Assembly: GCA_963816185.1 (NCBI GenBank)
Contig: CAWFJJ010000030.1
Coordinates: 448,001-512,000, forward strand
Direction of reading: 5' to 3'
Origin: Thermoanaerobaculia bacterium
Lineage (GTDB): Bacteria; Acidobacteriota; Thermoanaerobaculia; UBA5066
Length of the DNA stretch: 64,000 bases
Shown: positions 32,312-62,444 of the stretch, in pieces
Layout of the letters: each line of letters begins with the position of its first letter
Position numbering within the stretch: the stretch's first letter is position 1
Translations under genes and position numbers: made by a program
The notes under the pieces: model-generated
The model's database searches: none
Told to the model about the DNA's origin: nothing
The model's input: only the letters and a program-made list of their open reading frames with translations

Positions 32312-32371
32312 GCCGCTTCCACGCGCGTCGAGTTACGCTTCGGCACTCTGCTCGGGAGATTTTCTTAGAAG

Positions 32372-32959
32372 GTGAAAGAAGCGGTGGCGCGCCCCAGGCC
32401 CGTCTTCGTGGCGATCGGAATGGGCGCGAACATCGGCTCCCCCCGCCGCGCCTTTCGCCACGCCGCACAAACTCTCTTTCCCTTTCTAAGAAATCCGAAA
32501 ATTTCCCCCATCTACCGCACATCCCCGGTCGGAGGCCCATCCGATCAGCCCGATTACCTCAATGCCGTCATCGCCGGAACGACCTCGCTTCCTGCGAACG
32601 CCCTTCTTACCCTTCTCAGAAAATCCGAAATCTCCGCGGGTCGAAAGCCAGGCGGGCGGAGGAACGCGCCGCGCTCCCTGGACCTCGATCTCCTCCTCTA
32701 CGGAAACGAGCGGATCGCGACGCAGCGCCTGACGGTGCCGCATCCGCGCATGACGAGCCGATTGTTCGTCCTCGTCCCGCTCGCGGACGTCGCGCCGCGG
32801 CGCGTGGTGCCGGGAACCGGAAAGACGGTCGTGCGCCTTCTCGCCGAGACCCGGCGGCGCTCCACGGAGAGAGTCAGGCGGGCGCGGAAAGCGGGCGTGG
32901 CGCGGCCGGGCGCTCGACGAGCCGCGCGAGCGCGAACAGGAGAAGGGTCATCCGGTTGA
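32372..32959 (+). CDS. folK: 2-amino-4-hydroxy-6-hydroxymethyldihydropteridine diphosphokinase
   Basis: IGMGANIG, QPDYLNAV, PRSLDLDLLLYG, LTVPHPRM..RLFVLVPL. Confidence 0.93.
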   Translation: MKEAVARPRPVFVAIGMGANIGSPRRAFRHAAQTLFPFLRNPKISPIYRTSPVGGPSDQPDYLNAVIAGTTSLPANALLTLLRKSEISAGRKPGGRRNAPRSLDLDLLLYGNERIATQRLTVPHPRMTSRLFVLVPLADVAPRRVVPGTGKTVVRLLAETRRRSTERVRRARKAGVARPGARRAARARTGEGSSG

Positions 32960-34142
32960 AGAAGCGGACGGCCAGCGCGGGCTTCTCCACGTCGCCCGCG
33001 AGCACCGAGGTGACGGCCGCCCGTAGCGCGTCGAGCGGGGCCTTCTCGCAGAACAGGCGCGTGAAGACCGGATCGTAGTAGCCGTACACGAACGGGCGAA
33101 ATCGATTCACCATTCGGCACGTGGTCTTCGCGTACTCCGAGAAGTCCGCCGCGTCCACCCGGCCCTTTTTTGCGAGCGCCGCGTCGACGACTCTCGCCGC
33201 GCGGATGCCCGCCGACATCCCGAGGAACACGCCGGTGGAAAAGACCGGGTCGAGGAACGTCGCCGCGTCACCCACGAGCGCCCATCCGTTGCCCGCGTAC
33301 CGCTCCGACGTGAAGGAATAGTCCGAGACCGCCGAGACTCCGGTGATTCTTCGCGCCGACGCAAGGTACTCGCGCATCTTCGCGGACCTTCCGAGGATTT
33401 CGTCGAGCCGTTCCTCGTGCGTCTTTCCAGAAAGCGTCTCGAGGACCTTGGGGTCGAAGACGGCACCCACGGATGCCGAGCCGTCCGAGAAGGGAATCAC
33501 CCAGTACCAGATGTCCGCCACGAACGGCAGCAGGATGTCGCCGGCGCGCTCGCCTTCGCCGCGAAAGGCGCCGTCGAAGTGCGCGTACAGGGCGGCCTTC
33601 CGGAGATTCGAGTCCGGGCGCCTCAACTTGAGGCGAGAGGCGAGAAGGGCCGCCTGTCCCGTCGCGTCGAGGATCACCTTCGCGCGGATGTCCTCGGGCC
33701 CGCCGGGAGACGAAAGGTGGACCCCCACGGCGCGTTCGCCTTGGAAGATCACCCCCTCGGCCTTCAAGCCGCGGCGAACCTGTGCTCCCGACTTCCGCGC
33801 ATGGTCGGCGAGAAGGCCGTCGAAGTCCCTTCGCTTCACGTGAAAAGCAGACGGGTGCTCGGCGTTCCAAGCCTCGCGGAAGATCACCTGGCGCGTGCCG
33901 CCCGTCGTCTCGTTCGTGAAGAGGGCGCCGTATTTCGGCTGAAACCCGGCGGCCCGGATCCTGGGAAGGACCCCCAGCTCTTCGAAGAGGGGCATGTTCC
34001 ATGGGAGAAGCGACTCCCCGATCTTGAACCGGGGCTCGGGATCGCGGTCGACCAGGAGCACCGACCGTCCGGCCCGCGCGAGAGCCGTCGCCGCGGCGCA
34101 GCCGGAAGGTCCGGCCCCGAGGACGAGGGCGTCGACCGTCAT
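32874..34142 (-). CDS. Flavin-dependent halogenase-like FAD oxidoreductase
   Basis: GAGPSG, KIGESLLP, GFQPKYGA, WYWVIP (WxWxIP), VGDAATFLDPVFSTGV. Confidence 0.8.
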   Translation of the reverse strand: MTVDALVLGAGPSGCAAATALARAGRSVLLVDRDPEPRFKIGESLLPWNMPLFEELGVLPRIRAAGFQPKYGALFTNETTGGTRQVIFREAWNAEHPSAFHVKRRDFDGLLADHARKSGAQVRRGLKAEGVIFQGERAVGVHLSSPGGPEDIRAKVILDATGQAALLASRLKLRRPDSNLRKAALYAHFDGAFRGEGERAGDILLPFVADIWYWVIPFSDGSASVGAVFDPKVLETLSGKTHEERLDEILGRSAKMREYLASARRITGVSAVSDYSFTSERYAGNGWALVGDAATFLDPVFSTGVFLGMSAGIRAARVVDAALAKKGRVDAADFSEYAKTTCRMVNRFRPFVYGYYDPVFTRLFCEKAPLDALRAAVTSVLAGDVEKPALAVRFFNRMTLLLFALARLVERPAAPRPLSAPA

Positions 34143-35056: not shown

Positions 35057-35060
35057 TCTC

Positions 35061-35924: not shown

Positions 35925-35987
35925 GGCCTCCACTATACTGGCGCGCCTCTTGCGAGGAGGCGCACGCACGAAACACGAGGTGCCGCC

Positions 35988-36311: not shown

Positions 36312-36333
36312 CCCAGCAAGGAAATCACGAGCG

Positions 36334-42876: not shown

Positions 42877-43998
42877 TCAGGCCACGGGCCGCGCGATGAC
42901 GCCGCCGCCGAGGACGACTTCCGGCCGGACGACGTCGTAGAACACGGCCGACTGGCCGGGGGCAGCGGCACGCACCGGTTCCTCGAATTCCAGCCGTCCG
43001 CGGCCTTCCTCCTCGAGCGTGAGGCGGGCGGCCTGCTCGGCGTGGCGCGAGCGGATTCGGGCGAGCACGGGCACGGGCGACCTTACGCCTCCAGTCATGC
43101 GCACACTCACGCTTTCCAGGAAGACTTTCTTGGAAAGGAGAGAGGGGGCCGGCCCCACGACGACACGCGACTCTTCGGGAGAGGTCGAAATTACGTAGAG
43201 CGGCTCTTTCGAGGCGACGCGAAGTCCCCTTCTCTGTCCGATCGTGTAACCGAAGGTTCCCTCGTGCGCTCCGAGTCTCTCTCCACCTTCTAAGAGAATC
43301 TCCCCCGCCCGTGCCCCGCCGATTGCCGGAAGGTCGAGGCCGAGCCGTGGAGCCTCCTTCCGGATGAAGTCCGCCGGCGTCGACCCGGTCGGCACGAAAC
43401 AGATCTCCTGCGAGTCGGGCTTGTCCCAGTTCGGCAACCCTGCCTCGCGAGCGATCTCGCGCACCTCGGGCTTCGTCAGCTCGCCGAGCGGGAATCGTGC
43501 GAGGGCGAGCTGCTCTTCCGTGAGGTCGTAGAGGAAGTAAGACTGGTCGCGCGAGCGGTCGCGGGCTCTGAGGAGGCGCGGCGCGCCCGTGGACTCGTCG
43601 GCCCCGATACGCGCGTAGTGCCCCGTCGCGACGGCCTCGCAGCCGAGCGCCGCAGCGTTCTGGAGCAGCGTCTTGAACTTCACCTCGGTGTTGCACACCG
43701 TGCACGGGATGGGCGTCCTTCCCTCGAGATAGTCCGCGATGAACGGCTTCACGACCGCCTCGGTGAAACGCTGCTCAAGGTTCAGGACGAAGTGCGGCAC
43801 GCCGATCGCCGCCGCCGCGCGCCGCGCCACCGAGAGGTCGTCGAGCGTGCAGCAGCGGCCGGCGTCCGCCCCGGACCCGTCGCGGTCGTGGTTCCAGAGG
43901 TGCATCGACAGCCCCACCACGTCCGCGCCTTCGCGCTTGAGGAGGAGGGCCGCGACCGACGAGTCCACGCCCCCTGACATCGCGACCGCGATTCGCAT
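42877..43998 (-). CDS. mnmA: tRNA-specific 2-thiouridylase
   Basis: [55 protein letters not shown]. Confidence 0.97.
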
Positions 43999-44031
43999 CG
44001 AGGGGATTCTACGAGCGAGAGGGCGAGGACG

Positions 44032-45300
44032 TCAGTTAGAGGAGAAGAGAAGGGGAAGGGGTTTTACGTCCGGCGGGTAGGGGGACGCCAACTCGCGGCT
44101 GAAGGCAATCGACATTCGGGCACTGTCGGGCGAAGCCTCGTAGCGCCAGGACGCGCCCGGAAAGCGTGACGTCTCGATTCCGGGAATGGCGGCGGGCCAG
44201 CGCCCGCCGTTCTCCCTTCGAAGGCGCTTCGCCTCGAGGATCTTCGACGTCAGCTCGGCGTCGACGACGAGTCGGTCGGCGCGAAGGGAGGGGTTGCGGG
44301 TGTAGACATATTTGGGGGCTGGAGGCTCCGGGAAGTGATCTGAGAGAGGAGCATCTCGGAGGTGTGAGAGCTCGTCACGCATCAGGTCGGAGTACTCGAC
44401 GTTCGCGACACGATGCGCTGGCTCTTCGAGGACCTGCCACGCCCGTCTTAACCACGAGGCTTCCCCATGTTCTTCCAAGACGTATCTCCACCACGTTCTC
44501 GCGAACTTCGGCCGAACGCCGAGGGCATCCGCGTCCAGAAATGCGGTCCGGCCATCGAGTGTTTCCAGTCGCTTTCCCCAGACACTCTCTTCGACATTCA
44601 CCTTTCTGAGGATTCCGACCTGGAAACGGGCGATGGCGATCGAGAGCAGCGCCGGGATGATTTCAGGACGCTTTCGAAGCGACTCGTTGAGATTCCACGA
44701 AGCCTCGAGAGTGCGCGCAGCGGCCTCGTCGTGGCCACCTTGTGCAGCGGCGAGCGCCCGTGCCGTCAGAATTCTTTGAAGGCGAATCTGCCTGAGGACG
44801 TTCGGCTTCCGGCGATCACCCTCTGGAACGGAAAGATCGAGCGCCCATTCGGGTGGCGGTCCCGCAATGAGAACCGACTCGATTGCATCGACCGCGACGC
44901 GTCTTTCTTCCAGGAAGCGGATGGCCTCCTCGGGCGGCGGATCGATCGACGCCTCGGGCTTCGCGATCTGAGCCAAGAGATAGTCGACCGTGCCCTGGCT
45001 TCGCTTCCATTCGGTGGACCGGCGCATTTCTTCCGGCTCAATGGATCCGACAACTGGCGTCAGGTCGAAGACGGTCCCCCGCGTGAGCTCCTCCAGCTTC
45101 TTCGCGGTCTCGTTCGTCTCGTGCTTCGGATATTTCTTCTTCAGGTCGTCGAGACTGCCGAACGTCGCGGTCCAGGCGCGGTCGCACTGCTCTTCCCTGC
45201 GCGCCGCCCAGGCGTTTCCGCCGACGATCCACAGGACCGCCAGCAGAACCAGTGCCGCGAGAGAAAAGACGACAACGCGACGGAGCTTCATGCCTTTCAT
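44032..45300 (-). CDS. Hypothetical membrane-anchored protein (paralogue of 45297-46430)
   Basis: ATGA overlap with the upstream paralogue; N-terminal TM; shared blocks FGSL..KYP..TN..A..LEE, P.WA.DL, LRKRPE. Confidence 0.7.
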   Translation of the reverse strand: MKGMKLRRVVVFSLAALVLLAVLWIVGGNAWAARREEQCDRAWTATFGSLDDLKKKYPKHETNETAKKLEELTRGTVFDLTPVVGSIEPEEMRRSTEWKRSQGTVDYLLAQIAKPEASIDPPPEEAIRFLEERRVAVDAIESVLIAGPPPEWALDLSVPEGDRRKPNVLRQIRLQRILTARALAAAQGGHDEAAARTLEASWNLNESLRKRPEIIPALLSIAIARFQVGILRKVNVEESVWGKRLETLDGRTAFLDADALGVRPKFARTWWRYVLEEHGEASWLRRAWQVLEEPAHRVANVEYSDLMRDELSHLRDAPLSDHFPEPPAPKYVYTRNPSLRADRLVVDAELTSKILEAKRLRRENGGRWPAAIPGIETSRFPGASWRYEASPDSARMSIAFSRELASPYPPDVKPLPLLFSSN

Positions 45301-46430
45301 TTCTCCAAGGGCTTCTTCTCCCTCGCTGCCAGAACCTCGTCCGTCTTTCGGATCTCGAGGACCGCGATGTTCGCGCGGCGCCAGGACTCGATGAGATTCG
45401 GGACTGCAGGCTTCTGCTTGACGCCGTTCTCCGCGAGGGCCTTCTGGAAGGTCTCGCCGAGAAAGCGCGGCTCGGCGTCCGAGACCGGGCTCTTGGCGGC
45501 GGCGTCGATCGTGGCCCGCCACGCGTCGAGATATCCGGCGGCCTCGATCCGCTCGCGCCAGGCGCCGACGAGCGCCGAGAGCCGTTTGGAGAGCGGGCCC
45601 GCGCTGACCTTCGCTTTGCGAAGATCTCTCGCCACCTCGTAATCGAGCCACGCGCCACGGCGTAGGGCCATGAGCAGGCTCCCGCGCGGGTCGAGCCTCT
45701 TCAGGCGCTCGCGCCAGGCGGCGGAATCGACCGGGATCCGCCGGACGGCGCCGAGCTCGAGGCGCGTCGCGGCGATCGAGACCATCTGGCTCGCGACCTC
45801 GGGACGGCCGCGCAGGGCGCCCGTGAGCGCGAACGCGGCGCGAAGAGAGTCGTCCGCGCGTTTGTCCTTCGCCGCCGCTCTCGCCTCGGCTCGTCCGACG
45901 AGGACCCGCGCGAGCTGCATGTGTCCGAGGACGTTCGGTTCCGGCGCGGCAAAGAGCTTCCCGAGATCCACGGCCCAGTCCGGGGCGGGGCCCGCGAGAA
46001 GGCTCTTCTCGATCGCGTCGAGATCAGCGGCGTGCGAAGCGAAATACGCCGTCACTGCCGCGGGCGGGGCATCCGGCAGGCCCTCGGCTTTGGCGGCCTC
46101 GTGGTCCACCCATTTCTCGAGCGGCACGCGGACCTCGTCCTCCGCCGTCTTCTTCGGGCGGCCCGGCTCGTCCTCCACGGGCAGCTCGCTCCGCGGGCGA
46201 AGCTCGATGCCGAGACTCCGGGCGTTCTCCTCGAGGGCGCGCGCCGCCGCGTTCGTGGGGTGCGCCGGGAACTTCGCCGTGATCTCCGCGAGCGGGCCGA
46301 ACGCCTGGGCCCAGGCGGCCTCCGCGGCCCGCTCGCGTTGCGCGGCCCGGAGCGTGCCCACGCCGAACCAGACGATCGCGGCACCCGCGAGGGCGAGAAC
46401 GAGAAAACCGATCGCTCGTAGGGTGCGCAT
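45297..46430 (-). CDS. Hypothetical membrane-anchored protein
   Basis: N-terminal TM; FGPL..KFP..TN..A..LEE, PDWAVDL, LRGRPE. Confidence 0.7.
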
Positions 46431-46478
46431 TCAGATCCTCCAGGGCCGGCCCCGCATGATACGGGGCAGAATGCGCCC

Positions 46479-46772
46479 ATGAAGCGCCCCGCGAAACTCG
46501 CCGCCGCCGCTGCGGACGCGCGCCTTTCCGGCCTTCCCGGCTGGACGCGCGAGGGAGAAACACTTCACAGGACGTTCACGTTTCGCGACTTCTCCGAAGC
46601 GTTCGGTTTCATGGCGCGCGTCGCGCTCGTGGCCGAGAAGATGGACCACCATCCGGATTGGGCGAACGTCTGGAACCGCGTCACGGTCGATCTGACGACG
46701 CACGACGCCGGCGGCCTCACGGAGCTCGACTTCCGCCTCGCGGCGGAAATGAACCGCCTCGCGGACGAATAG
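46479..46772 (+). CDS. phhB: Pterin-4-alpha-carbinolamine dehydratase
   Basis: [23 protein letters not shown]. Confidence 0.93.
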
Positions 46773-46798
46773 ACAGGGAAGGATTTTTTGCTGATATT

Positions 46799-46820
46799 CG
46801 GGGCTGCAGATGCAGCCCCG
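46799..46820. terminator. GC-rich hairpin after phhB (terminator-like)
   Basis: CGGGGCTGCA-GA-TGCAGCCCCG inverted repeat in an AT-rich context; the U-tract is weak. Confidence 0.45.
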
Positions 46821-46835
46821 ATATTAGAAATCTCT

Positions 46836-46914
46836 TTCCCGGATATCCGGAGTCAAGGGCGCGCGTCGCGCGCCGCGTAGCGGTCGAAGACCCTTGACAC
46901 CGGACATCCGGGAA
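46836..46914. repeat. 24-bp inverted repeat (22/24), each arm TTGAC + palindrome CCGGAYATCCGG
   Basis: 46836-46859 TTCCCGGATATCCGGAGTCAAGGG vs 46891-46914 CCCTTGACACCGGACATCCGGGAA; 31-bp spacer. Confidence 0.85.
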
Positions 46915-47082
46915 GTATCCGAACCGCCGGATATGAGAAGAATCTCCGGCGCATTCCCTCAAGGTGTCGATTAATCAACAACAACCAGGGGTCGTGGCTC
47001 TTGCCTTGCCCCGGCAACTCCCCCGCCTAAATCACCTTCTAAGAAATACTTCCTTGCTCTCTGAACAAAAGTCCACATCCAC

Positions 47083-47098
47083 TGGCACGGCACGTGAA
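47083..47098 (+). promoter_or_regulatory. Putative sigma54 (-24/-12) promoter
   Basis: TGGCACG-GCAC-GTGAA; perfect -24, non-canonical -12 (GA for GC); 26 nt before ATG 47125. Confidence 0.45.
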
Positions 47099-47124
47099 GA
47101 GCGCGGGCGGGAGATCTGGCCGCC

Positions 47125-47391
47125 ATGTCCCAGAAATGCGTGGAATTGATATTCGGGAGACTCGCGACGGACGAGGAGCTTCGCCGGGAATTTCGCCGGG
47201 ACCCCCTGGGGACGCTCGGCAAGCTGGCCGCTTGCGGCGTCGAGCTGACGAAGGCCGAGCGCGACGCGCTCCTCGCGACGAAGAGCGCCCTGTTCGAGCG
47301 CCTCGCCGAGACGATCGATCCCCGCCTCCAGAAGGCCAGCCTCCGTTCGAGCGCGGAGCTGCGCCCCGACGACGAAAGGAGGCCTTCGTGA
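47125..47391 (+). CDS. Os1348-family NHLP-clan small protein
   Basis: MSQKCVELIFGRLATDEELRREFRRDP..L...GVELT..E..AL...IDPRLQKA matches the family pattern as I recall it; GGGAG RBS; stop overlaps the tolC start (GTGA). Confidence 0.72.
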   Translation: MSQKCVELIFGRLATDEELRREFRRDPLGTLGKLAACGVELTKAERDALLATKSALFERLAETIDPRLQKASLRSSAELRPDDERRPS

Positions 47392-49019: not shown

Positions 49020-50071
49020 ACGCGACCCGACCGAGGCTCACCGCTTTTTTCGCGGCCGCGCTGGCTGCGCTCGCCGCCTCCGGTTGCTCGCGCGGTGCGG
49101 GTGCGCACGCCGCCGCGGCGGGACCGACGCCGGCGCCCATCCTCGTGAACGGCGCGGCCGTCGAGAGCCGGGTCTTGCCGCGTGTCCTCGAGGTGACGGG
49201 CGCCCTCACCGCGGACGAGGCCGCCGACGTCGCGTCCGAACGCGACGGGCAGGTCGCGAGCGTACGCGTCGAGCGGGGGAGCTACGCCGAGAAAGGCGCC
49301 GTCCTCGCGACGATCGACGACCGCGAGGCGAAAGCGCAGCTCGACCAGGCGCGAGCGAACCTCGCGTGGGCGAAGGCCGAGGTCGAGCGCTACGCCGAGC
49401 TTCGCCGGAGGCAGGTCGTCGCCCGCGCCGAGGACCAGCGCAAGGCGACGGACCTCGACCTCGCCGCCGCGTCCCTCGCGCTCGCCGAAAAAGGCTATAC
49501 CGACTGCACGATTCGCGCGCCGTTCTCGGGCGTCGTCACCGAGAAGAAGATCTCGGCGGGCGCCTACATCAAGAAGGGCTCGGCGATCTGCGGCCTCGTG
49601 AAGATCGATCCTCTCCGGGCCGAGCTGGACATTCCCGAGTCGGCCGTGTCCGCCGTCCAGGTCGGCCAGAAAGCGGCGCTCGCCGCCCAGTCCTTTCCCG
49701 ACCGCACGTTCGACGCGACCGTCCGCTACATCGGCCCGTCTCTGCGCTCGGAAGCTCGTACGCTCGTCGTCGAGGCGATGGTCCCGAATCCCCGGCACAT
49801 CCTGAAGCCCGGCCTCTTCGTGACGGCGCGCGTCTCCCTCCCCAGGAGCGAGGAGACCCTGCTCGTCCCGGCGGCTGCCGTGGTCACGGATTCGGGGGTC
49901 TCGCACGTCTTCGTCCTCGGGCCCTCGCGCGTCGTCGAGCGCATCGTCTCGATCGGGGACCGCCACGGCGACTCCCTCGAGGTGCGATCCGGCGTCGCGG
50001 CGGGAGAACGCGTCGTCGTAGGCCCCGACCGCCGCCTCGTGGACGGCCTCGAGATCCAGCGCGCCGACTGA
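49016..50071 (+). CDS. RND efflux periplasmic adaptor (MFP) lipoprotein
   Basis: Lipobox ASGC, IRAPFSGVV, LKPGLF. Confidence 0.92.
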   Translation: MNATRPRLTAFFAAALAALAASGCSRGAGAHAAAAGPTPAPILVNGAAVESRVLPRVLEVTGALTADEAADVASERDGQVASVRVERGSYAEKGAVLATIDDREAKAQLDQARANLAWAKAEVERYAELRRRQVVARAEDQRKATDLDLAAASLALAEKGYTDCTIRAPFSGVVTEKKISAGAYIKKGSAICGLVKIDPLRAELDIPESAVSAVQVGQKAALAAQSFPDRTFDATVRYIGPSLRSEARTLVVEAMVPNPRHILKPGLFVTARVSLPRSEETLLVPAAAVVTDSGVSHVFVLGPSRVVERIVSIGDRHGDSLEVRSGVAAGERVVVGPDRRLVDGLEIQRAD

Positions 50072-50092
50072 CCGGCAGAAGGAGACCAATCC

Positions 50093-53308
<3,216 letters not shown>

Positions 53309-53321
53309 GCAGGCGGCCCAC

Positions 53322-54317
53322 ATGCGCAAAGCCCCCCGCTCTCTCCCGGCATTCGCGATCGCCGCGCTCGCGACCGCGGCAATCGCCTCCGCCGCCTGCC
53401 GGCAAAAACAGGACCCGAACATCGTCACCCTGAACGGGCGTCTCGAGGCGCCCACCGTGGATCTCGCGCCCAAGGTCGCCGGGCGCGTCGTCGAGGTGAA
53501 GGTCAAGGAAGGAGACCGCGTGAAAGCCGGCGACCTCCTCGTGACGCTCGACCTCGGCGAGACCGCTCTCGCCGTCGAGCGCGACCGCCGCGGGCTGGAA
53601 TCCAGCCAGGCGCGCTACCAGGACCTCGAGGCGGGAAGCCGGACGGCGGAAATCGCGCAAGCTCAAGCTGATCTCGCTGACAAAAAGGCCGCCGTCGAGC
53701 TCGCACGACGAGAGCTGGAGCGCCAGGAAGCCCTCCTTTCCAAGAAAGTAGGAACGCAGCGAGACACGGACACCGCCCGCACGACGATGGAACGGGCGGT
53801 GGCGAGCGAGAAAATGGCCAGTGATCGGTTGCAGCTTCTCCGCGAAGGCACGCGCTCGTGGCAGAAGGAGCAGGCGCGGCGGGACGTCGACCGTGCGCGC
53901 ACGGTCCTCAAGCAGTCCGAGACGACCGCCGGCGAGGCCGAGATCCATGCGCCCGCCGACGGCGTGATCCTCCACCGCATCGCCGAGCCGGGTCTCCTGC
54001 TCTCGCCCTCCCAGCCCGCGCTGACGATGGCGTTCTTGGGACGCCTCTACGTGCGGACGTTCATCCCCGAGACGAAGCTCGGTAAGGTGAGGACCTCGCA
54101 GGCCGCGACCGTCACAGTGGATTCGCTGCCGGGCCAGTCCTTTCCGGCACACGTCACGGAGATCTCCCCGGACGCCGAGTTCACGCCGAAGCCGGTCGAG
54201 ACGCGCGAAGAGCGCGTCAACCAGGTCTACGCCGCGAAGGTGGACCTCGATGCCGGGTGGAATGCGCCTCTCGTCCCGGGGCAGCCCGCGGAAGTGAGCG
54301 TCAAGGTCGGACCGTGA
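53322..54317 (+). CDS. HlyD family adaptor (YbhG-like)
   Basis: VAGRVVEVKVKEGD, AEFTPKPVETREER, PGQPAEV. Confidence 0.9.
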   Translation: MRKAPRSLPAFAIAALATAAIASAACRQKQDPNIVTLNGRLEAPTVDLAPKVAGRVVEVKVKEGDRVKAGDLLVTLDLGETALAVERDRRGLESSQARYQDLEAGSRTAEIAQAQADLADKKAAVELARRELERQEALLSKKVGTQRDTDTARTTMERAVASEKMASDRLQLLREGTRSWQKEQARRDVDRARTVLKQSETTAGEAEIHAPADGVILHRIAEPGLLLSPSQPALTMAFLGRLYVRTFIPETKLGKVRTSQAATVTVDSLPGQSFPAHVTEISPDAEFTPKPVETREERVNQVYAAKVDLDAGWNAPLVPGQPAEVSVKVGP

Positions 54318-55246
54318 TCGAGACCCGGGGCCTCACCCGGAAGTTCGAGAGAGTCGAGGCCCTGAAGGGAATCGACCTGTCGATCGACAAGGGCGAGCTC
54401 TTCGCGCTCATCGGACCCGACGGCGCCGGCAAGACGACGTTGTTCCGAATAATCGCCGGCCTTCTCGCACCAACCGCGGGCATCGTGCGCATGGCGGAAA
54501 ACATCGCGTTTGGCTTCGTCCCGCAGCGCTTCAGCCTCTACGAAGACCTTTCGATCGACGAGAACCTCTCGCTCAGGGCGCGGCTCTACGACATCCCCGA
54601 CGACGTGGCGGCGAATCGCGCGAAGGACCTCCTGGCACGCGTCGGCCTCGACCGCTTTGGGCGTCGTCTCGCGGGGGCGCTCTCGGGGGGCATGAAGCAG
54701 AAGCTCGCGCTCGTCTCGGCGCTGATGACGCAGCCGCCGCTCCTTCTTCTCGACGAGCCGACGACAGGCGTCGATCCGGTCTCGCGCCGCGAGTTCTGGC
54801 TGCTCCTCAACCGGCTGCATCACGAGGGCCTGACGATCGTCGTCTCGACGCCGTACATGGACGAGGCGGAGTACGCCACTCATCTCGCGTTCCTCGACCG
54901 GGGACGCCTGTCCGCTTTCGGCACACGCGGAGAGATCCTCGCCTCGTATCCGCGGCCGCTCGTCGAGGTTCGGTCGTCGAAGAGGTTCGAGGTCAAGAAG
55001 AGACTCGAAAGCGTGGAAGAGGTCGACGACGTCTCGCTTTTCGGGACGAGGCTGCACGTTCGCGGAAGAGAAAAGAAGGAGAAGGCGGGGGATTTCTTAG
55101 AAGGTAGATTGCGCGATGCGCTGGCGGGGCTCGTCCCGGCGGACGACATCCGGCGGGTGCAACCCAGCCTCGAAGACGCATTCGTGCTATTCAGCGAGGC
55201 TGAAGAGCCGGAGGAAAAAGGCGCGGAAAAGGGAGAGGCCGCATGA
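54314..55246 (+). CDS. ABC transporter ATP-binding protein (YbhF N-half-like)
   Basis: GPDGAGKTT, LSGGMKQK, LLDEPTTGVDPVSRREFW, STPYMDEA. Confidence 0.93.
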   Translation: MIETRGLTRKFERVEALKGIDLSIDKGELFALIGPDGAGKTTLFRIIAGLLAPTAGIVRMAENIAFGFVPQRFSLYEDLSIDENLSLRARLYDIPDDVAANRAKDLLARVGLDRFGRRLAGALSGGMKQKLALVSALMTQPPLLLLDEPTTGVDPVSRREFWLLLNRLHHEGLTIVVSTPYMDEAEYATHLAFLDRGRLSAFGTRGEILASYPRPLVEVRSSKRFEVKKRLESVEEVDDVSLFGTRLHVRGREKKEKAGDFLEGRLRDALAGLVPADDIRRVQPSLEDAFVLFSEAEEPEEKGAEKGEAA

Positions 55247-56322
55247 GCGACCAGCCCCCAGGCCGCGCGCCGGCCTCCCCCCCGCCGCCTTCTAAGAAGT
55301 CTTCCTCTTCGCCCTCGTCTTCCTCCTCTCCGAATTCCTCTTCCCCTTCTAAGAGATCTCTCTCTTCCTCTTCTTCGTCCTCCTTCCTGAGCTGTGAGAA
55401 CCTGACGCGGAAGTTCGGCACGTTCGTCGCCGTCGACCACGTCTCGTTCGACGTTCCCCGCGGCAAGGTCTTCGGCTTTCTCGGCCCGAACGGCTCGGGG
55501 AAGTCCACGACGATCCGGATGTTGACGGGGCTCCTCGCACCCTCCGACGGGAGCGCGCACATGCAGCCGGATGGCCGGACGCTCGACGTCGCGCGCGACA
55601 CCGACGCGTGGAAGACGCATCTCGGGTACATGAGCCAGAAGTTCTCTCTCTATCTCGACCTGACGGTGGAGGAGAACCTGTCGTTCTTCGGATCCATTTA
55701 CGGCCTTCCAAAAGAGCGCCTTGCCGGCCGCATCAAGGAGCTGTCCGGGCGCCTGCACTTCACGAAGCTCCTGCCGGCGCTCACGGAAGGGCTCTCGACG
55801 GGCTATCGCCAGCGCGTCGCGCTCGCGGCCGCGCTCCTCCACGAGCCGGAGCTCCTGTTCCTGGACGAGCCGACCGGCGGGGTCGATCCGAGAGGACGGC
55901 GCCTCTTCTGGGATCTCATCTACGAGCTCGCGGCCGACAAGGGAATGACCGTCCTCGTCACCACGCATTACATGGACGAGGCCGAGCAATGCGACCGGCT
56001 CGCGTTCATCCTCGACGGAGCGCTCATCGCCGAAGGGGCGCCGCCCGACCTCAAGCGCGACCTCGCCGACCGCATCGTGCAGGTCACGCCACCCTCCGAC
56101 CCGTTCCTGGCGCTCGAGGAGGTCCAGCGGGATTCCGCGCTCGAGGACGCGTATCTCTTCGGGGCACGGCTTCGCGCGGTCGCGAAGCCCGGCACGGTCG
56201 AGGCCGCCCGGAGCCTGCTCGCCCGCTTCGCCCCGCCGGAGCCCGCCGAGCCCTCGCTCGAGGACGTGTTCGTCTCGCTCGCGCGCAAGCAGAAGAGGTC
56301 ACGGGAGGAGGTCGCGGCATGA
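55243..56322 (+). CDS. ABC transporter ATP-binding protein (YbhF C-half-like) with Ser-rich N-terminal extension
   Basis: GPNGSGKST, GYMSQKFSLY, LDEPTGGVDP, TTHYMDEAE. Confidence 0.93.
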   Translation: MSDQPPGRAPASPPPPSKKSSSSPSSSSSPNSSSPSKRSLSSSSSSSFLSCENLTRKFGTFVAVDHVSFDVPRGKVFGFLGPNGSGKSTTIRMLTGLLAPSDGSAHMQPDGRTLDVARDTDAWKTHLGYMSQKFSLYLDLTVEENLSFFGSIYGLPKERLAGRIKELSGRLHFTKLLPALTEGLSTGYRQRVALAAALLHEPELLFLDEPTGGVDPRGRRLFWDLIYELAADKGMTVLVTTHYMDEAEQCDRLAFILDGALIAEGAPPDLKRDLADRIVQVTPPSDPFLALEEVQRDSALEDAYLFGARLRAVAKPGTVEAARSLLARFAPPEPAEPSLEDVFVSLARKQKRSREEVAA

Positions 56323-57434
56323 AACGATTCCTGGCCCTCGCCCGCAAGGAGTTCCTGCAGCTCAAGAGGGACCCCCTGACGCTGCGCATGATCGTCATGG
56401 TCCCGCTCCTGCAGACGATGATCTTCGGCTACGCGATCAACTTCGACGTCAAGCACCTGACAACGGCGGTCCTCGACGAATCGCGCTCGTACGAGAGCCG
56501 CGAGCTCGTTGCGAAGATGACCGCGAGCGAGTACTTCGACGTCGTGAGGTATGTCGAGTCGCAGGCGGAGCTCCGGCGCGAGATCGACTCGGCGCACGCG
56601 TCCGTCGGCCTCGTGATCGATGCGAACTTCGGGAAGGACATCCACCGCAGCGCGCCGGCGCACGCGCTCCTCATCGTGAACGCGTCGGACACGACGACCT
56701 CGTCGCAGGCGATGGCGATCGCGAGCGGGATCGCGAACGGCCTGTCGATCAACCTTCTCGCTCAGCGCGCGGGCTGGAAGAGCTCCTCGCTGCCGGTCGA
56801 CGTGCGCGTCAGGCCCTGGTACAACCCGGATCTCCGCACGGCGACGTTCATCATCCCCGGCCTCATCGCGATCATCCTGACGTTCACGCTCATCCAGTTC
56901 ACGGCGATGGCGATCGTCCGCGAGAGGGAACGCGGCACGCTCGAGCAGCTCCAGGTCACGCCGGTGACGCGCATCGAGCTCATCCTCGGCAAGATCGCGC
57001 CTTTCGTCGTGATCGGATTCTTCCAGCTCACGCTCATCATCGTTCTGATGCGGTTCCTGTTCCAGGTGCCGATCGCGGGCAGCGTCCTCGAGCTCTATGC
57101 CGCCGGGCTCATGTTCATCGCGGCCGTGCTCGGACTCGGAATGCTCCTGTCCACGCTCGCGAAAACGCAGATGCAGGCGATGCAGATGTCGTTCTTCTTC
57201 CTCCTGCCGTTCGTGTTCCTGTCGGGCTACGTCTTCCCGATCGACGGGATGCCGAAGTTCTTCCAGTTCATCACGTACCTGATCCCGGCGAAGTACTTCA
57301 TCCAGATCGTGCGCGGCATCGTGCTGAGGGGCGCGAACCTGTCCGAGCTTCTCGAGCCGATCGCGTGGCTCACCGGTTTCACGATCTTCATCATCGTCCT
57401 GGCGATCGCGCGGTTCCGGAAGACAACGGCGTAG
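56319..57434 (+). CDS. ABC-2 permease (YbhS/YbhR-like)
   Basis: ATG 56319, KEFLQLKRD, WYNPDL, IVRERERGTLEQL, LSGYVFPIDGMP. Confidence 0.93.
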   Translation: MKRFLALARKEFLQLKRDPLTLRMIVMVPLLQTMIFGYAINFDVKHLTTAVLDESRSYESRELVAKMTASEYFDVVRYVESQAELRREIDSAHASVGLVIDANFGKDIHRSAPAHALLIVNASDTTTSSQAMAIASGIANGLSINLLAQRAGWKSSSLPVDVRVRPWYNPDLRTATFIIPGLIAIILTFTLIQFTAMAIVRERERGTLEQLQVTPVTRIELILGKIAPFVVIGFFQLTLIIVLMRFLFQVPIAGSVLELYAAGLMFIAAVLGLGMLLSTLAKTQMQAMQMSFFFLLPFVFLSGYVFPIDGMPKFFQFITYLIPAKYFIQIVRGIVLRGANLSELLEPIAWLTGFTIFIIVLAIARFRKTTA

Positions 57435-57444
57435 GCGCGGGCGC

Positions 57445-58110
57445 ATGATGGACGGGGCCATGGAAGCCGAAGACGAACAGCCCGCGAAACCGGTCCTGAG
57501 GGGCGTCCTCCACGAGGTCGCCGCGTTTGCGGCGGCGGTCGCCGGGGGCGTCCTCGTCCTCAACGCCTCCGGGCCGCGCGCACGCGCCGGGGCGATCGTC
57601 TACGGGGTCTCCCTCGTCGCGCTCTTCGCCGTGAGCGCCATCTACCACCGGCCCACGTGGTCCGAGCGCGTCCGCCGGGTTCTCAGGCGCGTCGACCATT
57701 CCGCGATCTTCCTGCTCATCGCCGGGACGTACACGCCGTTCGCTTTCCTTCTCGAGAACCGCGCGGGATGGGTTCTGCTCGGCGTCGTGTGGGCTGGCGC
57801 GCTCGTCGGGATCGTCCTGTCCATCGCATGGGTGGGGGCGCCGAAGGTCCTCGTCGCCGCCGTGTGCGTCCTCCTCGGCTGGGCGGCCCTTCCGATCCTG
57901 CCGGCGCTGAAAGCGGCGCTCGGAACGGGAGCCGTCGTCCTGCTCGCCGCGGGCGGCGTCGTGTACAGCCTGGGCGCGATCGTTTACGCCGTCCGGCGTC
58001 CGAATCCCTTTCCCAGGGTCTTCGGGTACCACGAGGTCTTCCACGCGCTCGTGATCATCGCGGCCGCCTGCCATTTCGCGGTCGTGGCGGAAGCGATCCG
58101 GGCGCTCTGA
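57445..58110 (+). CDS. Hemolysin III (PAQR/TrhA) family membrane protein
   Basis: SAIYH, DHSAIFLLIAGTYTP, GYHEVFH. Confidence 0.92.
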   Translation: MMDGAMEAEDEQPAKPVLRGVLHEVAAFAAAVAGGVLVLNASGPRARAGAIVYGVSLVALFAVSAIYHRPTWSERVRRVLRRVDHSAIFLLIAGTYTPFAFLLENRAGWVLLGVVWAGALVGIVLSIAWVGAPKVLVAAVCVLLGWAALPILPALKAALGTGAVVLLAAGGVVYSLGAIVYAVRRPNPFPRVFGYHEVFHALVIIAAACHFAVVAEAIRAL

Positions 58111-58149
58111 CGACAGCCCCGGCGCGCGGGCGGTCCGGCGGCCGTATCG

Positions 58150-58413
58150 TCAGTGGCCGGAGCAAACGGGCACGGACCCGAGGGAGACCTCGTCCCCGCG
58201 ATGCTCGAGCTTGCCGTGCGACGCGAGGAAAGCGAGCACCTCGTGGAACGAGAAGCGGTCGCCATGGCAGTTCCCGTACACCGCGTCGACGCCGAACGCG
58301 CCGGACGCCGCGTTTCGGAGAGCTTCGACGCTCGCTTTCCCTCCCATCTGCTGGAGAAGGGAAAGCAGGTCGTGACCGAAAACGGGCGCACGCGCCGGGA
58401 CGAGACTGTTCAT
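58150..58413 (-). CDS. YecH/DUF2492-like metal-binding protein
   Basis: GHDLL, FG..A.Y.NC, FLASHGK, C-terminal VCSGH. Confidence 0.75.
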   Translation of the reverse strand: MNSLVPARAPVFGHDLLSLLQQMGGKASVEALRNAASGAFGVDAVYGNCHGDRFSFHEVLAFLASHGKLEHRGDEVSLGSVPVCSGH

Positions 58414-58993
58414 TCGAAAAGGCTAGCACGCAAAGGACGACGCCTCCCTGGCATTCCGCGTGATTCAGATGCTTCAAGGGCACTCTTGGGGCCGCCCGGA
58501 GGCTCAACCCGAAGCGTGACGAGCAACCGTCCCACGCGTCCGTTCCCATCCAGGAAAGGATGGATCGTCTCGAACTGCACGTGAGCCATGGCGGCTTTCT
58601 CGAGCGGAGGCGTGCGCACGGGATCGTCGTGGAGAAAGCGTTCGAGCGCCGCCATGCACTCTTCGACGCGATCCGGAGGCGGCGGAACAAAGTGCGCGTT
58701 TCCCGGACGCGTGCCCCCGATCCAGATCTGGGTGCGCCGAAACTCGCCAGGCGTCCTGTCGGCACCGCGCCCCTTCGCCAGAAGAACTTCGTGAATCTCG
58801 CGCAGGAGGCGGTTCGAGAGCGGGAAGTCCGCTCGCAGTCGCTTGAGGCCGTGTTCGAGCGCCGCGACGTAGCGGGATACCTCCGTGACGTCGTCGAGCG
58901 GTACCCCCGAAATCTCCTCGAGTTCGAAGAGAAGCAGGTCGGAAAGGGACGACTGCGTCCCCTCTATTTGCGACGAGAGGACAGCCGTTTCAT
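58410..58993 (-). pseudogene. Fic-family adenylyltransferase remnant
   Basis: RBS + ATGAAACG at 58993 joins out of frame to AVLSSQIEGTQSSLSDLL...PGEFRRTQIWIGG...HVQFETIHPFLDGNGRVGRLL; similarity stops right after the Fic motif. Confidence 0.85.
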
Positions 58994-59015
58994 GGATTCC
59001 TTCCCTTGAAACGAA

Positions 59016-59063
59016 CCTTTAATAGCAACCCACGCTATTAAAGCGGCCGTATCCTTTAATAGC
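59016..59063. promoter_or_regulatory. Triple 10-bp motif CTTTAATAGC (forward, reverse, forward) upstream of the fic remnant
   Basis: 59017-59026 CTTTAATAGC, 59034-59043 GCTATTAAAG, 59054-59063 CTTTAATAGC. Confidence 0.7.
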
Positions 59064-59112
59064 GTCTCGCGGGGCGAAAGGAGCCAAGCGACGAGCGAGG
59101 TCGCAGCGGCGG

Positions 59113-59364
59113 TTAGTTCTCCTCGAACCCGCGTCCGGCGCCGCAGACTTCCGGCATGCGGCAGGCGCCGCCGCCGCAGGCGGTCGAAGGATCGAAGGCG
59201 CCCCTGGACGGCGACGCCGGCGGCGCTGCGAACGTCGAGAGCAGGCGCGAGACCTTCTTCGAACCGCACGACGAGCATTTCGGCGGCCGCGCCGTGTCGC
59301 CCGCAAGGACGAGGTCCTCGGTCTTCTTACCGCAATCCGAACACCGATATTCCAGAAGAGGCAT
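59113..59364 (-). CDS. FmdB family zinc-ribbon protein
   Basis: MPLLEYRCSDCG...CSSCGSKKVSRLLSTF, Cys-rich tail. Confidence 0.9.
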   Translation of the reverse strand: MPLLEYRCSDCGKKTEDLVLAGDTARPPKCSSCGSKKVSRLLSTFAAPPASPSRGAFDPSTACGGGACRMPEVCGAGRGFEEN

Positions 59365-59521
59365 GAAACGCTCCCACCGCCCATTCTACGGCCTCACGAG
59401 GCGTGGGACGACGCCTACCCTCGCGCGGCGGCGTGCGGCTGATTCAAATGCTCCATGCGGACGCCCTCCGCCGGGCCCACGTTTCGAACGGAGGCTCGAA
59501 AGGGCCTCTCGAGGAGGATTC

Positions 59522-59980
59522 ATGCGCGTCCAGGACGTGATGACCCGCCATGTGGAGACGATCGACGGTCAGGAGAACGCGCAGGTCGCGTTCGATTCCA
59601 TGAAGCTCAAGGGGATCCGGCATCTTGTCGTCAAGAGAGACTCGGAGCTCGTGGGCGTGCTCTCGAAGCGCGACCTGGGTGTGCCCGATCAGTACGACTT
59701 CCGCGAGAAGCACCGCGTCGCCGAGCTGATGACGCCGCAGGTCGTGACGGCCAGCCCGGACATGTCGGTCAGGCAGGCCGCGAACCTGATGCGCGGCCGC
59801 GCGATCGGATGCCTGCCCGTCGTGGAGGAGGGGCGCCGGAGCCGGCTCGTCGGCATCGTCACCGTGTCCGATCTCCTCGAGCTGCTCGGGCGCGGCGTCG
59901 ACCGCCCGGCGCAGGGCAGGCGCCTGACACTCAAGACACGGGCTCCGCGCGTCGACTCCAAGGCGAAGCGAATGCGCTAG
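59522..59980 (+). CDS. CBS domain pair protein
   Basis: GAGGAGG RBS, MRVQDVMT, IRHLVV, LVGVLS.RDL, IGCLPVV, LVGIVTVSDLL. Confidence 0.9.
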   Translation: MRVQDVMTRHVETIDGQENAQVAFDSMKLKGIRHLVVKRDSELVGVLSKRDLGVPDQYDFREKHRVAELMTPQVVTASPDMSVRQAANLMRGRAIGCLPVVEEGRRSRLVGIVTVSDLLELLGRGVDRPAQGRRLTLKTRAPRVDSKAKRMR

Positions 59981-59984
59981 GGGC

Positions 59985-62444
59985 TCAGAGCGCGACCCGG
60001 CGGAGCCGGAGCGCATTCGAGATCACGGACACCGAGCTCATCGTCATCGCGGCGCTCGCGATCACGGGCGAAAGGAGGAGCCCGAAGAACGGGTAGAGCA
60101 CGCCGGCCGCGATCGGGATGCCGATCACGTTGTACACGAACGCGAACGCGAGGTTCTGCCGGATATTTCTCATCGTCGCCTTCGAGAGGCGGCGTGCGCG
60201 CACGAGGCCCGAGAGGTCTCCTTTGAGAAGCGTCACATCCGCGCTCTCGATCGCGATATCGGTCCCGGTTCCCATCGCGATGCCCACGTCTGCAGCGGCG
60301 AGCGCCGGCGCGTCGTTCACACCGTCTCCCGCCATCGCGACGATCCGGCCCTCTCTTTTGAGGCGCGCCACGGCCTCGGCCTTGGCCGTCGGCAGCACTC
60401 CCGCGACGATCTCGTCGATCCCGAGCTCCATACCCACATTTTCGGCGGTCGCCTTCGCGTCGCCCGTGAGCATCACGACGCGAATTCCCAGGCCGTGCAT
60501 CTCGGCGATGGCGGCCGCTGCGGGGCCCTTGATCGGATCGGCCGCCGAGAGAAAGCCCGCCGGCTTGCCGTCCACGGCTACGAAGAGGACCGTGTGACCT
60601 TTCGCGCGCTCGGCGTCCGCTTCGGCGAGGAGGTCGTTCGGAAAGGGAGAAGAAGAGGAAGAGGAAGAGGAAGAGGAAAAGGAAGATTTTTCTTCGAATA
60701 GAGGAAGGGAACCGAGCACGACGGATCGGCCGTCCACCTTGCCCGCGATGCCCTTTCCGGGGATTGAAGAGAATTCCTTCGAAGGTGAAAGAGTCAGGCC
60801 CGCCGCCTCGGCGGCGGCGGCGACCGCAGCCGCCAAAGGGTGCTCGCTCGCGCGCTCGAGCGAGGCGGCCAGGCGCAGCAATTCCTTTTCATCGAACGCG
60901 CCGAAGGCGCGAATCTTCTCGACCTTCGGCTTCCCCTCCGTCAGCGTGCCCGTCTTGTCTACGACGAGCGTGTCCACTTTCTCGAGCTTCTCGAGCGCCT
61001 CGGCGTTCTTCACGAGGATGCCGGCCTGCGCGCCCCGCCCCGTGCCGACCATGATCGACATCGGCGTCGCGAGGCCGAGCGCACAGGGACACGCGATGAT
61101 GAGGACGGCGACGGCGTTCACGAGCGCGTGCGCGAGGCGCGGCTCCGGGCCGAACACCGCCCAGGCGGCGAACGTCAGGACCGAGACCAGAACGACCGCG
61201 GGCACGAACCACGACGCGACCACGTCCGCGAGGCGCTGGATGGGCGCGCGGCTGCGCTGGGCTTGGCCGACCAGGCGCACGATCTGGGCAAGGAGCGTGT
61301 CTCGTCCCACGCGCTCGGCCTTTACCACGATGCCGCCGACGCTGTTGAGCGTGCCGCCCGTCACCGTGCTCCCCCTCGTCTTCTCCACCGGCACCGGCTC
61401 GCCCGTCAGCATCGATTCGTCCACCGCGCTCGCGCCTTCGACGACGAGCCCGTCCACAGGCACTCTCTCGCCCGGCCTCACGCGCAGCCGGTCTCCGACG
61501 CGCACGTCCTCGAGTGGGACGTCCGCTTCGACGCCCGAGGCCTCGATCCGGCGCGCCGTCTTCGGCGCGAGGCCCAGGAGCGCCCGGATCGCCCCCGAGG
61601 TTCGCGCGCGCGCCCTCAGCTCGAGCACCTGCCCGAGGAGGACGAGAGTCGTGATGCCCGCCGCGGCCTCGAAGTAGACGTCGTGTACCGCTCCTGCGCC
61701 AGTGGTGCCGTGGCTCGGGAGATGGTCTGCAAAGTTTCTTTGAAGGCTCAGAAAGACTTCCGCGGTCCTGTAAAGGCTGTACAAGAAAGCCGCGCCCGTT
61801 CCGAGCGCGATGAGGGTGAACATGTTGAGATTCCGCGTTCTCAGCGAGGCCCAGCCTCTCTCGAAGAACGGCCATCCGCACCACAGGACGACCGGCGTCG
61901 CGAGGAGCAGCTGGACGATGAGGTTGAGGCGCGGTGGGAACGAGTCCCTCAGCGCGGGCACCAGCATCGCGCCCATCTCGAAGAGAAACAGCGGAAGCGT
62001 CAGACCCAGGCTCACCCAGAACCGCCGGGACATGTCCCGAAGCTCCGGGTTCTCCTCCTCCGCGGCTGTCGGCATCATCGGCTCGAGCGCCATGCCGCAG
62101 ATCGGGCAGGCTCCGGGCTTGTCCCTGATGATCTCGGGGTCCATGGGGCAGGTCCAGAGAGAGGGACCGGGGGACTTCTTAGAAGGTGAAGAGGGGATGG
62201 GCGCGGCAGGCTGCGACGGCGAGGCTGCTGCGGTGGCGGAAGGGCCTCCAGCGGTGTCCGTCTTTCTATTCGAAGAAAATCTTTCTGGCTCTTTCTTGAA
62301 TTTCTCCGCGCAACCCTTCGCGCAGAAATACCAGGTCTTCCCCCCGTACTCGACCTTCGCCGCGGCGCGCGCGGGATCCACGGTCATTCCGCAGACGGGA
62401 TCGATCTCGCCTGCGGGCGGCGGGGAGTGAACCGGCAGCTGCAA
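59985..62444 (-). CDS. copA: Cu(I)/heavy-metal P1B-type ATPase with YHS domain
   Basis: [58 protein letters not shown]. Confidence 0.93.

Follow-up and report, generated by a model that had tools for sequence, protein, structure and literature searches.

The DNA described here is a 64,000-nt window (G000:C30:448001-512000) of G000, a 5.09-Mb, 30-contig, 67% G+C draft assembly that is 95% complete and whose MnmA homologues place the organism among the uncultured Acidobacteriota/Thermoanaerobaculia metagenome-assembled genomes (MAGs). Its subject is a short, oriented DNA element, the arm, copies of which lie in or beside folK, mnmA, an RND pump gene, the genes of two ABC ATPases and copA, and which is found throughout the genome, mostly in inward-facing inverted pairs. 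A preliminary description of this stretch had drawn attention to the word TCTTAGAAGG, carried by the arm, and the eight exact copies that it counted, four per strand, are all present where it had placed them. The arms of the window, as detected with a position weight matrix (PWM; cut-off of the genome-wide scan 18 bits, with the reversed sequence as control) together with the further evidence given in brackets, are the following.

32356..32380, plus strand: arm of 39.4 bits, GAGATTTTCTTAGAAGGTGAAAGAA, 45 nt past the stop of the FYDLN_acid gene and overlapping the Shine-Dalgarno sequence and start of folK (Pfam HPPK)
32474..32498, minus strand: its inverted partner, 33.1 bits, within folK, where it encodes ..FPFLRNPK.. 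(sequence)
32603-32627, minus strand: a further, weak arm of 24.3 bits
43121..43145, plus strand: arm B of mnmA, 21.9 bits, antisense to the gene and encoding PSLLSKKVF (alignments)
43278..43302, minus strand: arm A of mnmA, 26.6 bits, on the sense strand of the gene (alignments)
47027..47051, minus strand: solo arm of 35.6 bits in the spacer between the pterin-4a-carbinolamine dehydratase and outer-membrane efflux genes, with no partner of 12 bits or more
51582..51606, plus strand: solo arm of 33.0 bits in the RND pump, in a Lys/Arg/Glu-rich stretch around residue 500 (..KRKEREEDLLRRKESE..; Pfam)
55088..55112, plus strand: arm of 31.1 bits in the C-terminal part of ABC ATPase 1 (..GDFLEGR..), preceded by a purine tract
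55280..55361, minus strand: two tandem arms, 55280-55304 (24.5 bits) and 55337-55361 (27.2 bits), partners of the arm at 55088
60684..60793, plus strand: two weak arms in copA, 15.5 and 19.8 bits
62170..62194, plus strand: arm of 33.7 bits, antisense to copA, in the linker between the YHS (residues 14-58) and HMBD (residues 97-122) domains (Pfam)
62259..62283, minus strand: partner arm of 19.5 bits with a TTCGAA core variant, in the same copA linker

The initial placement of six exact copies within genes is essentially right (mnmA, the RND pump loop, the C-terminus of ABC ATPase 1, the copA linker and two in ABC ATPase 2); it stands for most of them, while the two assigned to ABC ATPase 2 fall in an N-terminal extension, rich in Ser, that may or may not be translated. 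The remaining two are the copy at 32363, in the ribosome-binding/start region of folK, and the intergenic copy at 47035. At 55 kb, the arms sit at the junction of the two ABC ATPase genes inside an operon, and the tandem arms of 55280-55361 belong either to the Ser-rich N-terminal extension or to the 5' region of ABC ATPase 2. A possible 50-60-residue Ser/Pro-rich extension of that protein (55243-55420) would consist of the two arms and their pyrimidine tracts; the start of ABC ATPase 2 overlaps the stop of ABC ATPase 1 (ATGA). The arm-bearing stretch of the RND pump, as read from the sequence, probably forms the cytoplasmic loop after the sixth transmembrane segment, and the partner arm inside folK (32474..32498) presumably causes no obvious length change by comparison with Escherichia coli FolK.

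The word is strongly over-represented. Dinucleotide-preserving shuffles, the background used for the window, give 0 copies of TCTTAGAAGG in 100 shuffled sequences against the 8 real ones, and the 14-mer GAYTTCTTAGAAGG, with up to two mismatches, has 10 window sites vs 0.32 expected. A genome-wide k-mer count against a Markov background had been proposed as a check; with an order-3 chain over 5.09 Mb it returns a strong excess, 216 copies of TCTTAGAAGG vs 2.83 expected, and 239 copies of TTTCTTAGAA vs 0.97 expected. The original estimate of 0.03 copies per 64 kb was close to the Markov value of ~0.036. Poly-T and poly-A words set aside, the top over-represented 10-mers of the genome all belong to the TCTTAGAAGG word family, and 601 genome sites score at least 18 bits with the PWM vs ~51 in the reversed-sequence control. 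The poly-T words that lead the k-mer list were rejected as an assembly artefact; on contig C10, at ~1147-2240 and outside the window, 1,028 T are followed by 65 A in a 67% G+C genome, almost certainly an artefact, which swamps naive k-mer statistics. A second enriched word, TCACCGTGAC, was dropped, 33 of its 39 copies lying in predicted genes as ..TVT..-like coding repeats.

Alignment of 337 TTCTTAGAA sites yields an extended consensus, GA(G/A)ATTTCTTAGAAGG(T/G)GAA.(G)GGG, common to genic and intergenic copies. The arm is ~25 nt or more in length, oriented and asymmetric, and consists of a purine-rich tract of 15-20 nt followed by GATTTCTTAGAAGG(G)TGA(A/G)..GGG; ATTTCTTCGAAGG is a variant of it with an identical phyletic pattern. 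The self-symmetry of a single arm is limited to a 4+4 dyad around one base, TTCT-N-AGAA, which is not a hairpin-forming palindrome. The operator of a dimeric protein proposed at the outset does not agree with this anatomy, since the site is not symmetric; what had been missed is an asymmetric arm of at least ~25 nt that occurs in convergent pairs.

The pairing follows a strict order. Among neighbours no more than 500 bp apart (n=219), 160 are arranged '+-', 9 '-+' and 50 in tandem, and the '+-' excess is limited to separations of 45-300 bp. An inward-facing inverted partner lies within 300 bp of 69-74% of the 323 strong arms, an outward-facing one of 2%. Measured from centre to centre, the spacing of a pair is 45-290 bp with a sharp mode at 74-76 bp; the class at 150-156 bp is made of three-arm arrays that step by ~75-78 bp, and the 93-bp class exists mostly because arms were inherited with Ser/Thr kinase paralogues. 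After removal of 20 redundant pairs, 172 are left. In other MAGs, 79 loci with the 20-mer include 44 with an inward partner and 0 with an outward one. Two remarks of the preliminary description are explained by this organisation: copies do come in clusters 57-190 bp apart because arms come in pairs, and the first 32 kb do lack an exact copy, which by itself is not significant because the copies are clustered.

The DNA enclosed by a pair carries little of its own. Pairwise comparison finds the inner segments mutually unrelated, save for a few paralogous genes and duplicated contigs; BLAST of 150 of them against the genome returned 17-23-nt near-chance matches and paralogous genes, with no guide-like targets, and the 75-bp spacing class has no conserved central motif. 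Folding of the inner segments is barely more structured than that of random genomic DNA (mean z -0.6 vs -0.1). The spacing has no robust helical phasing: its best period (9.3 bp, p~0.009) is present only with the 74-76 spike, and nothing is seen above 80 bp; an apparent period of ~19.5 bp was rejected as the product of composite three-arm arrays and kinase paralogues.

Genes were called with a crude codon-usage caller of our own (4,172 open reading frames (ORFs), 85% coverage), so that all genic and intergenic fractions given here are only approximate; homology confirms a genic location in mnmA, in the RND pump and in copA, and for folk the location is backed by the Pfam HPPK match and the comparison with E. 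coli FolK. By these calls, 190 of the 337 cores are intergenic and 147 genic, in a genome of which ~15% is intergenic DNA, and the 155 pairs divide into 62 inside one gene, 27 across a gene edge and 66 between genes. The genic cores are evenly spread along genes and use four stop-free frames (41, 38, 47 and 21 cores). This bears on the possibility that the arm is a protein-level or compositional by-product, either of low-complexity Glu/Lys/Ser-rich coding or of a paralogous family. Paralogous Ser/Thr kinases do carry both arms by descent (EEFFEGEE...SFEEIP), and the purine tracts encode E/K/R-rich or S/P-rich linkers; however, the intergenic cores and the 172 pairs that stay after redundant ones are dropped speak against it, the four frames with their unrelated peptides (those of the window include FLRNP) and the third positions conserved against the bias for G+C at these positions (GC3) refute it as a general explanation, and it is extremely improbable outside the kinase subset, for which alone it holds. 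The expanded Ser/Thr kinase family is found outside the window, at G000:C24:602-621 kb, C23:5297 and C28:51676, with both arms flanking ..RFEREAKLLASLNHPNI.. (KVLPEEFFEGEE...SFEEIP).

The earlier proposal that the constraint acts on DNA and not on protein is upheld by the use of four stop-free frames and by the rare A/T-ending codons that are kept at the mnmA arms, the gene to which the codon-by-codon analysis was applied. Alignment of orthologues, likewise proposed as a check, finds that most of the 27 genus genomes have the two mnmA arms at orthologous positions and that two have neither. The arms are equal-length replacements of variable residues with no insertion, GEIFLEGGER standing where out-of-genus homologues have GPITSASGEV. 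Arm A is kept through the rare codons ATT, TTA, GAA, GGT, GGA and AGA; in the codons of the mnmA arms, ATT is retained in 25/27, GAA in 25/27, GGT in 20/22, GGA in 27/27 and TTA in 12/20. Over the 27 genomes, the fraction of A or T at third positions is 0.447 in the 20 arm columns vs 0.126 in the 320 others (p=1.7e-5); third codon positions at the mnmA arms are conserved against the GC3 bias of the genome. In one mnmA (locus L025, genome G006), a frame disruption or stop lies beside arm B, either a MAG error or a real lesion. Gain and loss at orthologous positions were followed at one intergenic locus, where the pair is complete in G000, G003 has a single arm and only a degenerate trace is present in G011; these states point to gradual gain or loss of single arms and not to a clean insertion. 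The origin of the arms is unusual in that they appear to have arisen by substitution into native DNA, essential genes included.

The position of the intergenic pairs raises the question as to whether the element works at the level of RNA, as a transcript hairpin based on the paired cores that would stabilise the 3' untranslated region, be a target of RNase III or end transcription in both directions in an unconventional way. Intergenic pairs lie at a median of ~50 nt past a co-oriented stop, with fewer in divergent spacers; the '+-' order puts a pyrimidine/U-rich arm and tail 3' of the hairpin on either strand, whole elements fold into long hairpins, and terminator-like hairpins with a U-tract number 14 in window positions 44001-64000 vs 13.2 in shuffles. 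As described in PMC2397512, inverted pairs of the Neisseria DNA uptake sequence (DUS) act as terminators. Against an RNA element, the arms of a pair do not covary, the number of identical positions out of 57 being 24.9 within pairs vs 25.0 between pairs (z=-0.4), and G·U is not favoured over A·C in the 106 transcription-oriented pairs (249 vs 266, and 182 vs 224). Solo arms have no strand bias, with 26 sense and 19 antisense in genes and 18/20 in co-directional intergenic spacers. The loops, of 45-250 nt, have no structure of their own; 62 of the 155 pairs are wholly genic and 27 more cross gene edges, including the operon-internal junction and the folK start; and a scan of the window at Rfam gathering thresholds found 0 families. 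Beyond the shared consensus, nothing in the arms is shaped by pairing, and an RNA element seems unlikely, if far from negligible. A classical intrinsic terminator was rejected, the stem base being AU-rich, the 45-250-nt loop unstructured, a pure U-tract lacking and the position behind a stop confined to the intergenic subset. With the artefact left aside, the whole genome has only five runs of 9-10 T or A, and classical intrinsic terminators seem to be little used in this lineage.

A pair of inverted arms may also be read as the terminal inverted repeats of a non-autonomous mobile element that depends on a putative, vertically inherited transposase, comparable to doublets of REP (repetitive extragenic palindromic) sequences that form hairpins (REPINs) or to MITEs (miniature inverted-repeat transposable elements), with solo arms and odd spacings as products of decay. 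The layout is indeed REPIN-like (the most abundant oligomer, inverted doublets, preferred next-neighbour distances), copies number in the hundreds and are enriched between genes, presence or absence differs at one orthologous locus, and strain indels are bounded by arms. Strain variation was followed over one 9-kb stretch, where the well-supported case is that of copA: soil-metagenome contigs of 95-99% identity (two runs, one study) are shorter by a net 69 nt (23 codons) between the two arms (62194/62201->62271), a loss inside the linker that keeps the frame. At this pair, the inner DNA varies freely and the arms stay. The spacing of the copA arms is 89 nt here and 129 nt in two other genus genomes, and G011 has a lone arm. 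In one contig of a related strain (X4) the stretch 55218->55337 is missing up to an arm, across a weak joint whose short side is 23 nt; metagenome joints away from arms (short sides of ~20 nt) were disregarded as cross-organism alignments.

Several findings speak against mobility. Inner sequences are unrelated, the few BLAST matches among the 150 being mostly paralogous genes or duplicated contigs; the two arms of a pair are not copies of one another, a lone arm is no palindrome that could form a hairpin, those of mnmA are substitutions with no length change, and the orthologous intergenic locus shows gradual gain or loss of single arms. The Y1 transposase family of REP-associated tyrosine transposases (RAYTs), PF01797, has 0 matches in G000 and occurs in 4/29 genus genomes (control: 6/14 known genomes). 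Twelve segments of 0.5-5 kb flanked by '+-' arms were considered, and 9 ORFs from 5 of them belong to housekeeping or other non-transposase families, or to none. A non-autonomous mobile element is quite unlikely on this evidence. Membership of the MITEs is not supported, as no homologous copies with internal sequence were found at new sites, target-site duplications not having been searched for systematically.

The comparison with REPINs and with REP sequences in bacterial interspersed mosaic elements (BIMEs) is the closest in layout. In PMC3116915, the REPINs of Pseudomonas fluorescens SBW25 are described as inverted doublets at preferred distances of 71 and 110 bp. Like the REPIN/REP-BIME elements of that account, the arm is the most abundant oligomer of its genome, forms inverted doublets at a preferred spacing around a less conserved spacer, is present in hundreds of lineage-specific, vertically persistent copies placed after genes, and differs between related strains by asymmetric deletions that end inside one repeat (PMC3116915). 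Unlike a REPIN, the arm has only TTCT-N-AGAA and no hairpin palindrome, its spacers are unrelated and hardly structured (z -0.6 vs -0.1) with no compensatory change, no cognate RAYT is found in G000, ~40% of the pairs are genic and the mnmA arms were made by substitution. Assignment to the REPIN/REP-RAYT class was rejected accordingly: inverted doublets are present, while the palindrome or hairpin, a cognate RAYT and an extragenic location are not.

Rickettsia palindromic elements and prokaryotic MITEs (see PMC10969869 and PMC1779305) come from the insertion of homologous copies and lengthen the protein by a peptide segment. Their inverted-repeat elements are tolerated in gene loops and linkers, as are the arms. 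The arms differ in that their inner DNA is native or unrelated and that those of mnmA add no residues.

The second idea of the preliminary description, a lineage-specific DNA uptake sequence built up by uptake bias and recombination, is weak, its all-frame, lineage-specific character being borne out, and its density, clumping and strict pairing speaking against it. The arms written in situ stand at variable protein positions, in every frame and on either strand, orthologous sites are conserved, the word is genus-specific in the manner of a dialect, and homologues of ComEC and DprA are present; these competence genes are near-universal, being found in 10-11/14 control genomes, so that they are uninformative. 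The Neisseria DUS and the Pasteurellaceae uptake signal sequence (USS; PMC2397512, see also PMC3630211) are likewise short DNA-level words used in all frames and on both strands and specific to a lineage, and they are imposed on variable protein positions, with conserved orthologous sites and inverted pairs behind genes (PMC2397512). The arms, however, stand on average ~8.5 kb apart, or ~14 kb if clusters are counted, some 6-10 times sparser than the Neisseria DUS, which recurs every ~1.1-1.5 kb (PMC2397512). They are clumped, with 15 gaps >50 kb vs 1.6 expected, and 69-74% of the strong ones stand in 45-290-bp pairs of one fixed order with long purine-rich flanks, an arrangement that a single-site receptor does not predict; DUS pairs are no more than 21 nt apart (PMC2397512). 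An uptake sequence is very unlikely, and the case for DUS/USS membership is weak: coding copies in all frames, on both strands and restricted to a lineage are present, a high and even density is not.

The word is genus-wide, and its presence in relatives bears on the absence that the preliminary description had named as a refutation of its idea. The 13-mer has 21-110 copies in 18/18 other genomes of the genus, occurs in 0/12 genomes of two other families of the order and gives 0 in the reversed control. In a set of 301 genomes of the class, the 12-mer has 45-177 copies in 16/16 genus genomes and 16 copies in 1/2 genomes of the sister genus; it is absent from the 10 other genomes of the same family that were searched (the second sister-genus genome and five further genera), and each remaining genome of the set has 0-4 copies. 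Among 185,579 species genomes, the 20-mer has at least 117 matches, and of the 80 listed all but 2 are in MAGs labelled Thermoanaerobaculia or Acidobacteriota. One exact 20-mer (locus L121) comes from far outside the lineage, from a 15-kb contig in a MAG with the label Aquifex sp., probably mis-binned or a chance match. The worry that the copies are assembly artefacts can be dismissed, as the word is found in all 28 other genus genomes searched and independent soil-metagenome contigs cover 54-63 kb at 90-99% identity.

A macrodomain or partition signal, the first idea put forward for the word, does not agree with the distribution of its sites. The ~600 sites lie on all nine large contigs in both orientations with no ori/ter-like pattern, skew polarity or other relation to GC skew, as far as a draft assembly allows, and the reported lack of strand polarity is confirmed by the two orientations genome-wide and by the unbiased solo arms. 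Like parS/ParB, Noc sites, matS, the FtsK-orienting KOPS and Chi, the arm is an over-represented chromosomal word, although its reading by a protein is putative, and we take the ATTTC...GAAA flavour of the arm to resemble the half-sites of parS and of the Noc-binding site. Unlike parS, Noc sites and matS, it is asymmetric and not a 14-16 bp palindrome, with ~600 copies on all large contigs; unlike KOPS and Chi, it has no replication-strand polarity. We know of no convergent paired arrangement for any of these systems. Membership of the parS/KOPS/Chi type was rejected on copy number and asymmetry and for want of ori-proximal clustering or strand polarity, the draft assembly limiting this last test. 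Integron attC sites are bounded by the boxes R'' and R' (RYYYAAC...GTTRRRY); they were rejected as well, the arm consensus having no such boxes and the units being dispersed among core genes (an integrase was not searched for).

Taking the anatomy of the arm, the pairing rule, the constraint at the DNA level, the in-situ origin and the restriction to one lineage as observed, a plausible though still tentative reading, a little short of an even chance, is that the arms are paired, oriented sites on double-stranded DNA for a putative lineage-specific protein. We infer that such a protein reads the arms, that the two arms are bound cooperatively and that the complex may provide topological or transcriptional insulation or a recombination substrate. 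The arm core would be recognised on double-stranded DNA by a putative sequence-specific protein confined to one uncultured Thermoanaerobaculia genus, and the working unit would be two inward-facing arms bound together, preferably ~75 bp apart from centre to centre, to which extra arms may sometimes be added in steps of ~75-78 bp. The inner DNA would be signal-free, whether it is filler between genes, encodes a disordered linker of a protein or is normal conserved coding sequence. Arms would be written by point substitution at permissive spots, past stop codons and in loops, linkers and variable residues, and once written would be kept by selection or by a conversion-type drive throughout the lifetime of the genus. 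The units may act like the 'punctuation' of REP/BIME/REPIN elements, as protein-bound landmarks at gene ends.

Several observations weigh against this protein-bound unit. The two invariant cores, 13 nt each, are complementary by the very build of a pair, so that a hairpin of the cores only is possible. Outside the 74-76 spike the spacing is broad (45-290 bp), which is loose for a rigid two-site complex, and helical phasing vanishes above 80 bp. An RNA 3'-end element would explain equally well the ~50-nt median distance of intergenic pairs past a co-oriented stop codon and the occupancy of divergent spacers, half that of others (14/396 vs 67/912 co-directional and 12/142 convergent). Any function of the ~40% of pairs that lie inside genes is putative. 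No arm-binding protein was found in a search aimed at Y1 transposases only, and binding is putative. With respect to the downstream gene, the intergenic pairs sit 116-151 nt upstream of the next start.

A bolder version of the protein-bound unit, possible but doubtful, is that of a self-writing chromosomal signal. A putative domesticated recombinase or transposase other than Y1/RAYT, or a nucleoid factor, would clamp two 25-nt arms ~75 bp apart, and selection or a conversion-like drive would impose arms on permissive DNA, essential genes included, with codons and residues re-coded; the element would be a REPIN-like resident that spreads by substitution and not by transposition.

As a feature of the dispersed-repeat or 'genomic punctuation' type, the arm family is real, strong and apparently undescribed. 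Full-text matches to TTCTTAGAA, among those listed, are mostly eukaryotic (including STAT5 sites), and none concerns a dispersed bacterial genome motif; nothing was found on Thermoanaerobaculia with an inverted repeat, nor on this motif in work on over-represented oligonucleotides or uptake sequences of Acidobacteria, in a literature coverage that excludes subscription journals. Dispersed short repeats (REP/BIME, REPINs, uptake sequences, HIP1) are among the least understood features of bacterial chromosomes, and the arm family is a case in which several of the usual explanations, namely mobile copies, RNA pairing and a classical uptake signal, were tested and mostly failed. Its arms have stayed conserved as long as the genus has lasted, and housekeeping genes pay for this with rare codons and altered residues, which lets one ask how a genome-wide signal gets written by substitution. 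With arms of 25 nt to serve as bait, a sharp geometry of 75 bp and a phyletic pattern that is simple, the family offers an entry to a putative new DNA-reading protein in uncultured Acidobacteriota. In practical terms, the word may serve as a lineage marker for the binning of MAGs, and the arms mark places where automated gene calling mis-sets starts and stops.

The density of arms varies over a five-fold range among the large contigs, from 0.39 per 10 kb on C29 to 1.8-2.1 on C21, C24 and C28, and eleven small contigs (~136 kb) have no arms. This unevenness could reflect core vs accessory DNA, a second replicon or contamination of the bin; the motif-free small contigs were rejected as a sign of contamination, since the difference between 30 PWM sites in 500 kb (21 small contigs) and 571 in 4.59 Mb is too weak. 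Within the window, the two weak arms of copA at 60684-60793 have counterparts at corresponding offsets in several copA loci of other genomes of the genus.

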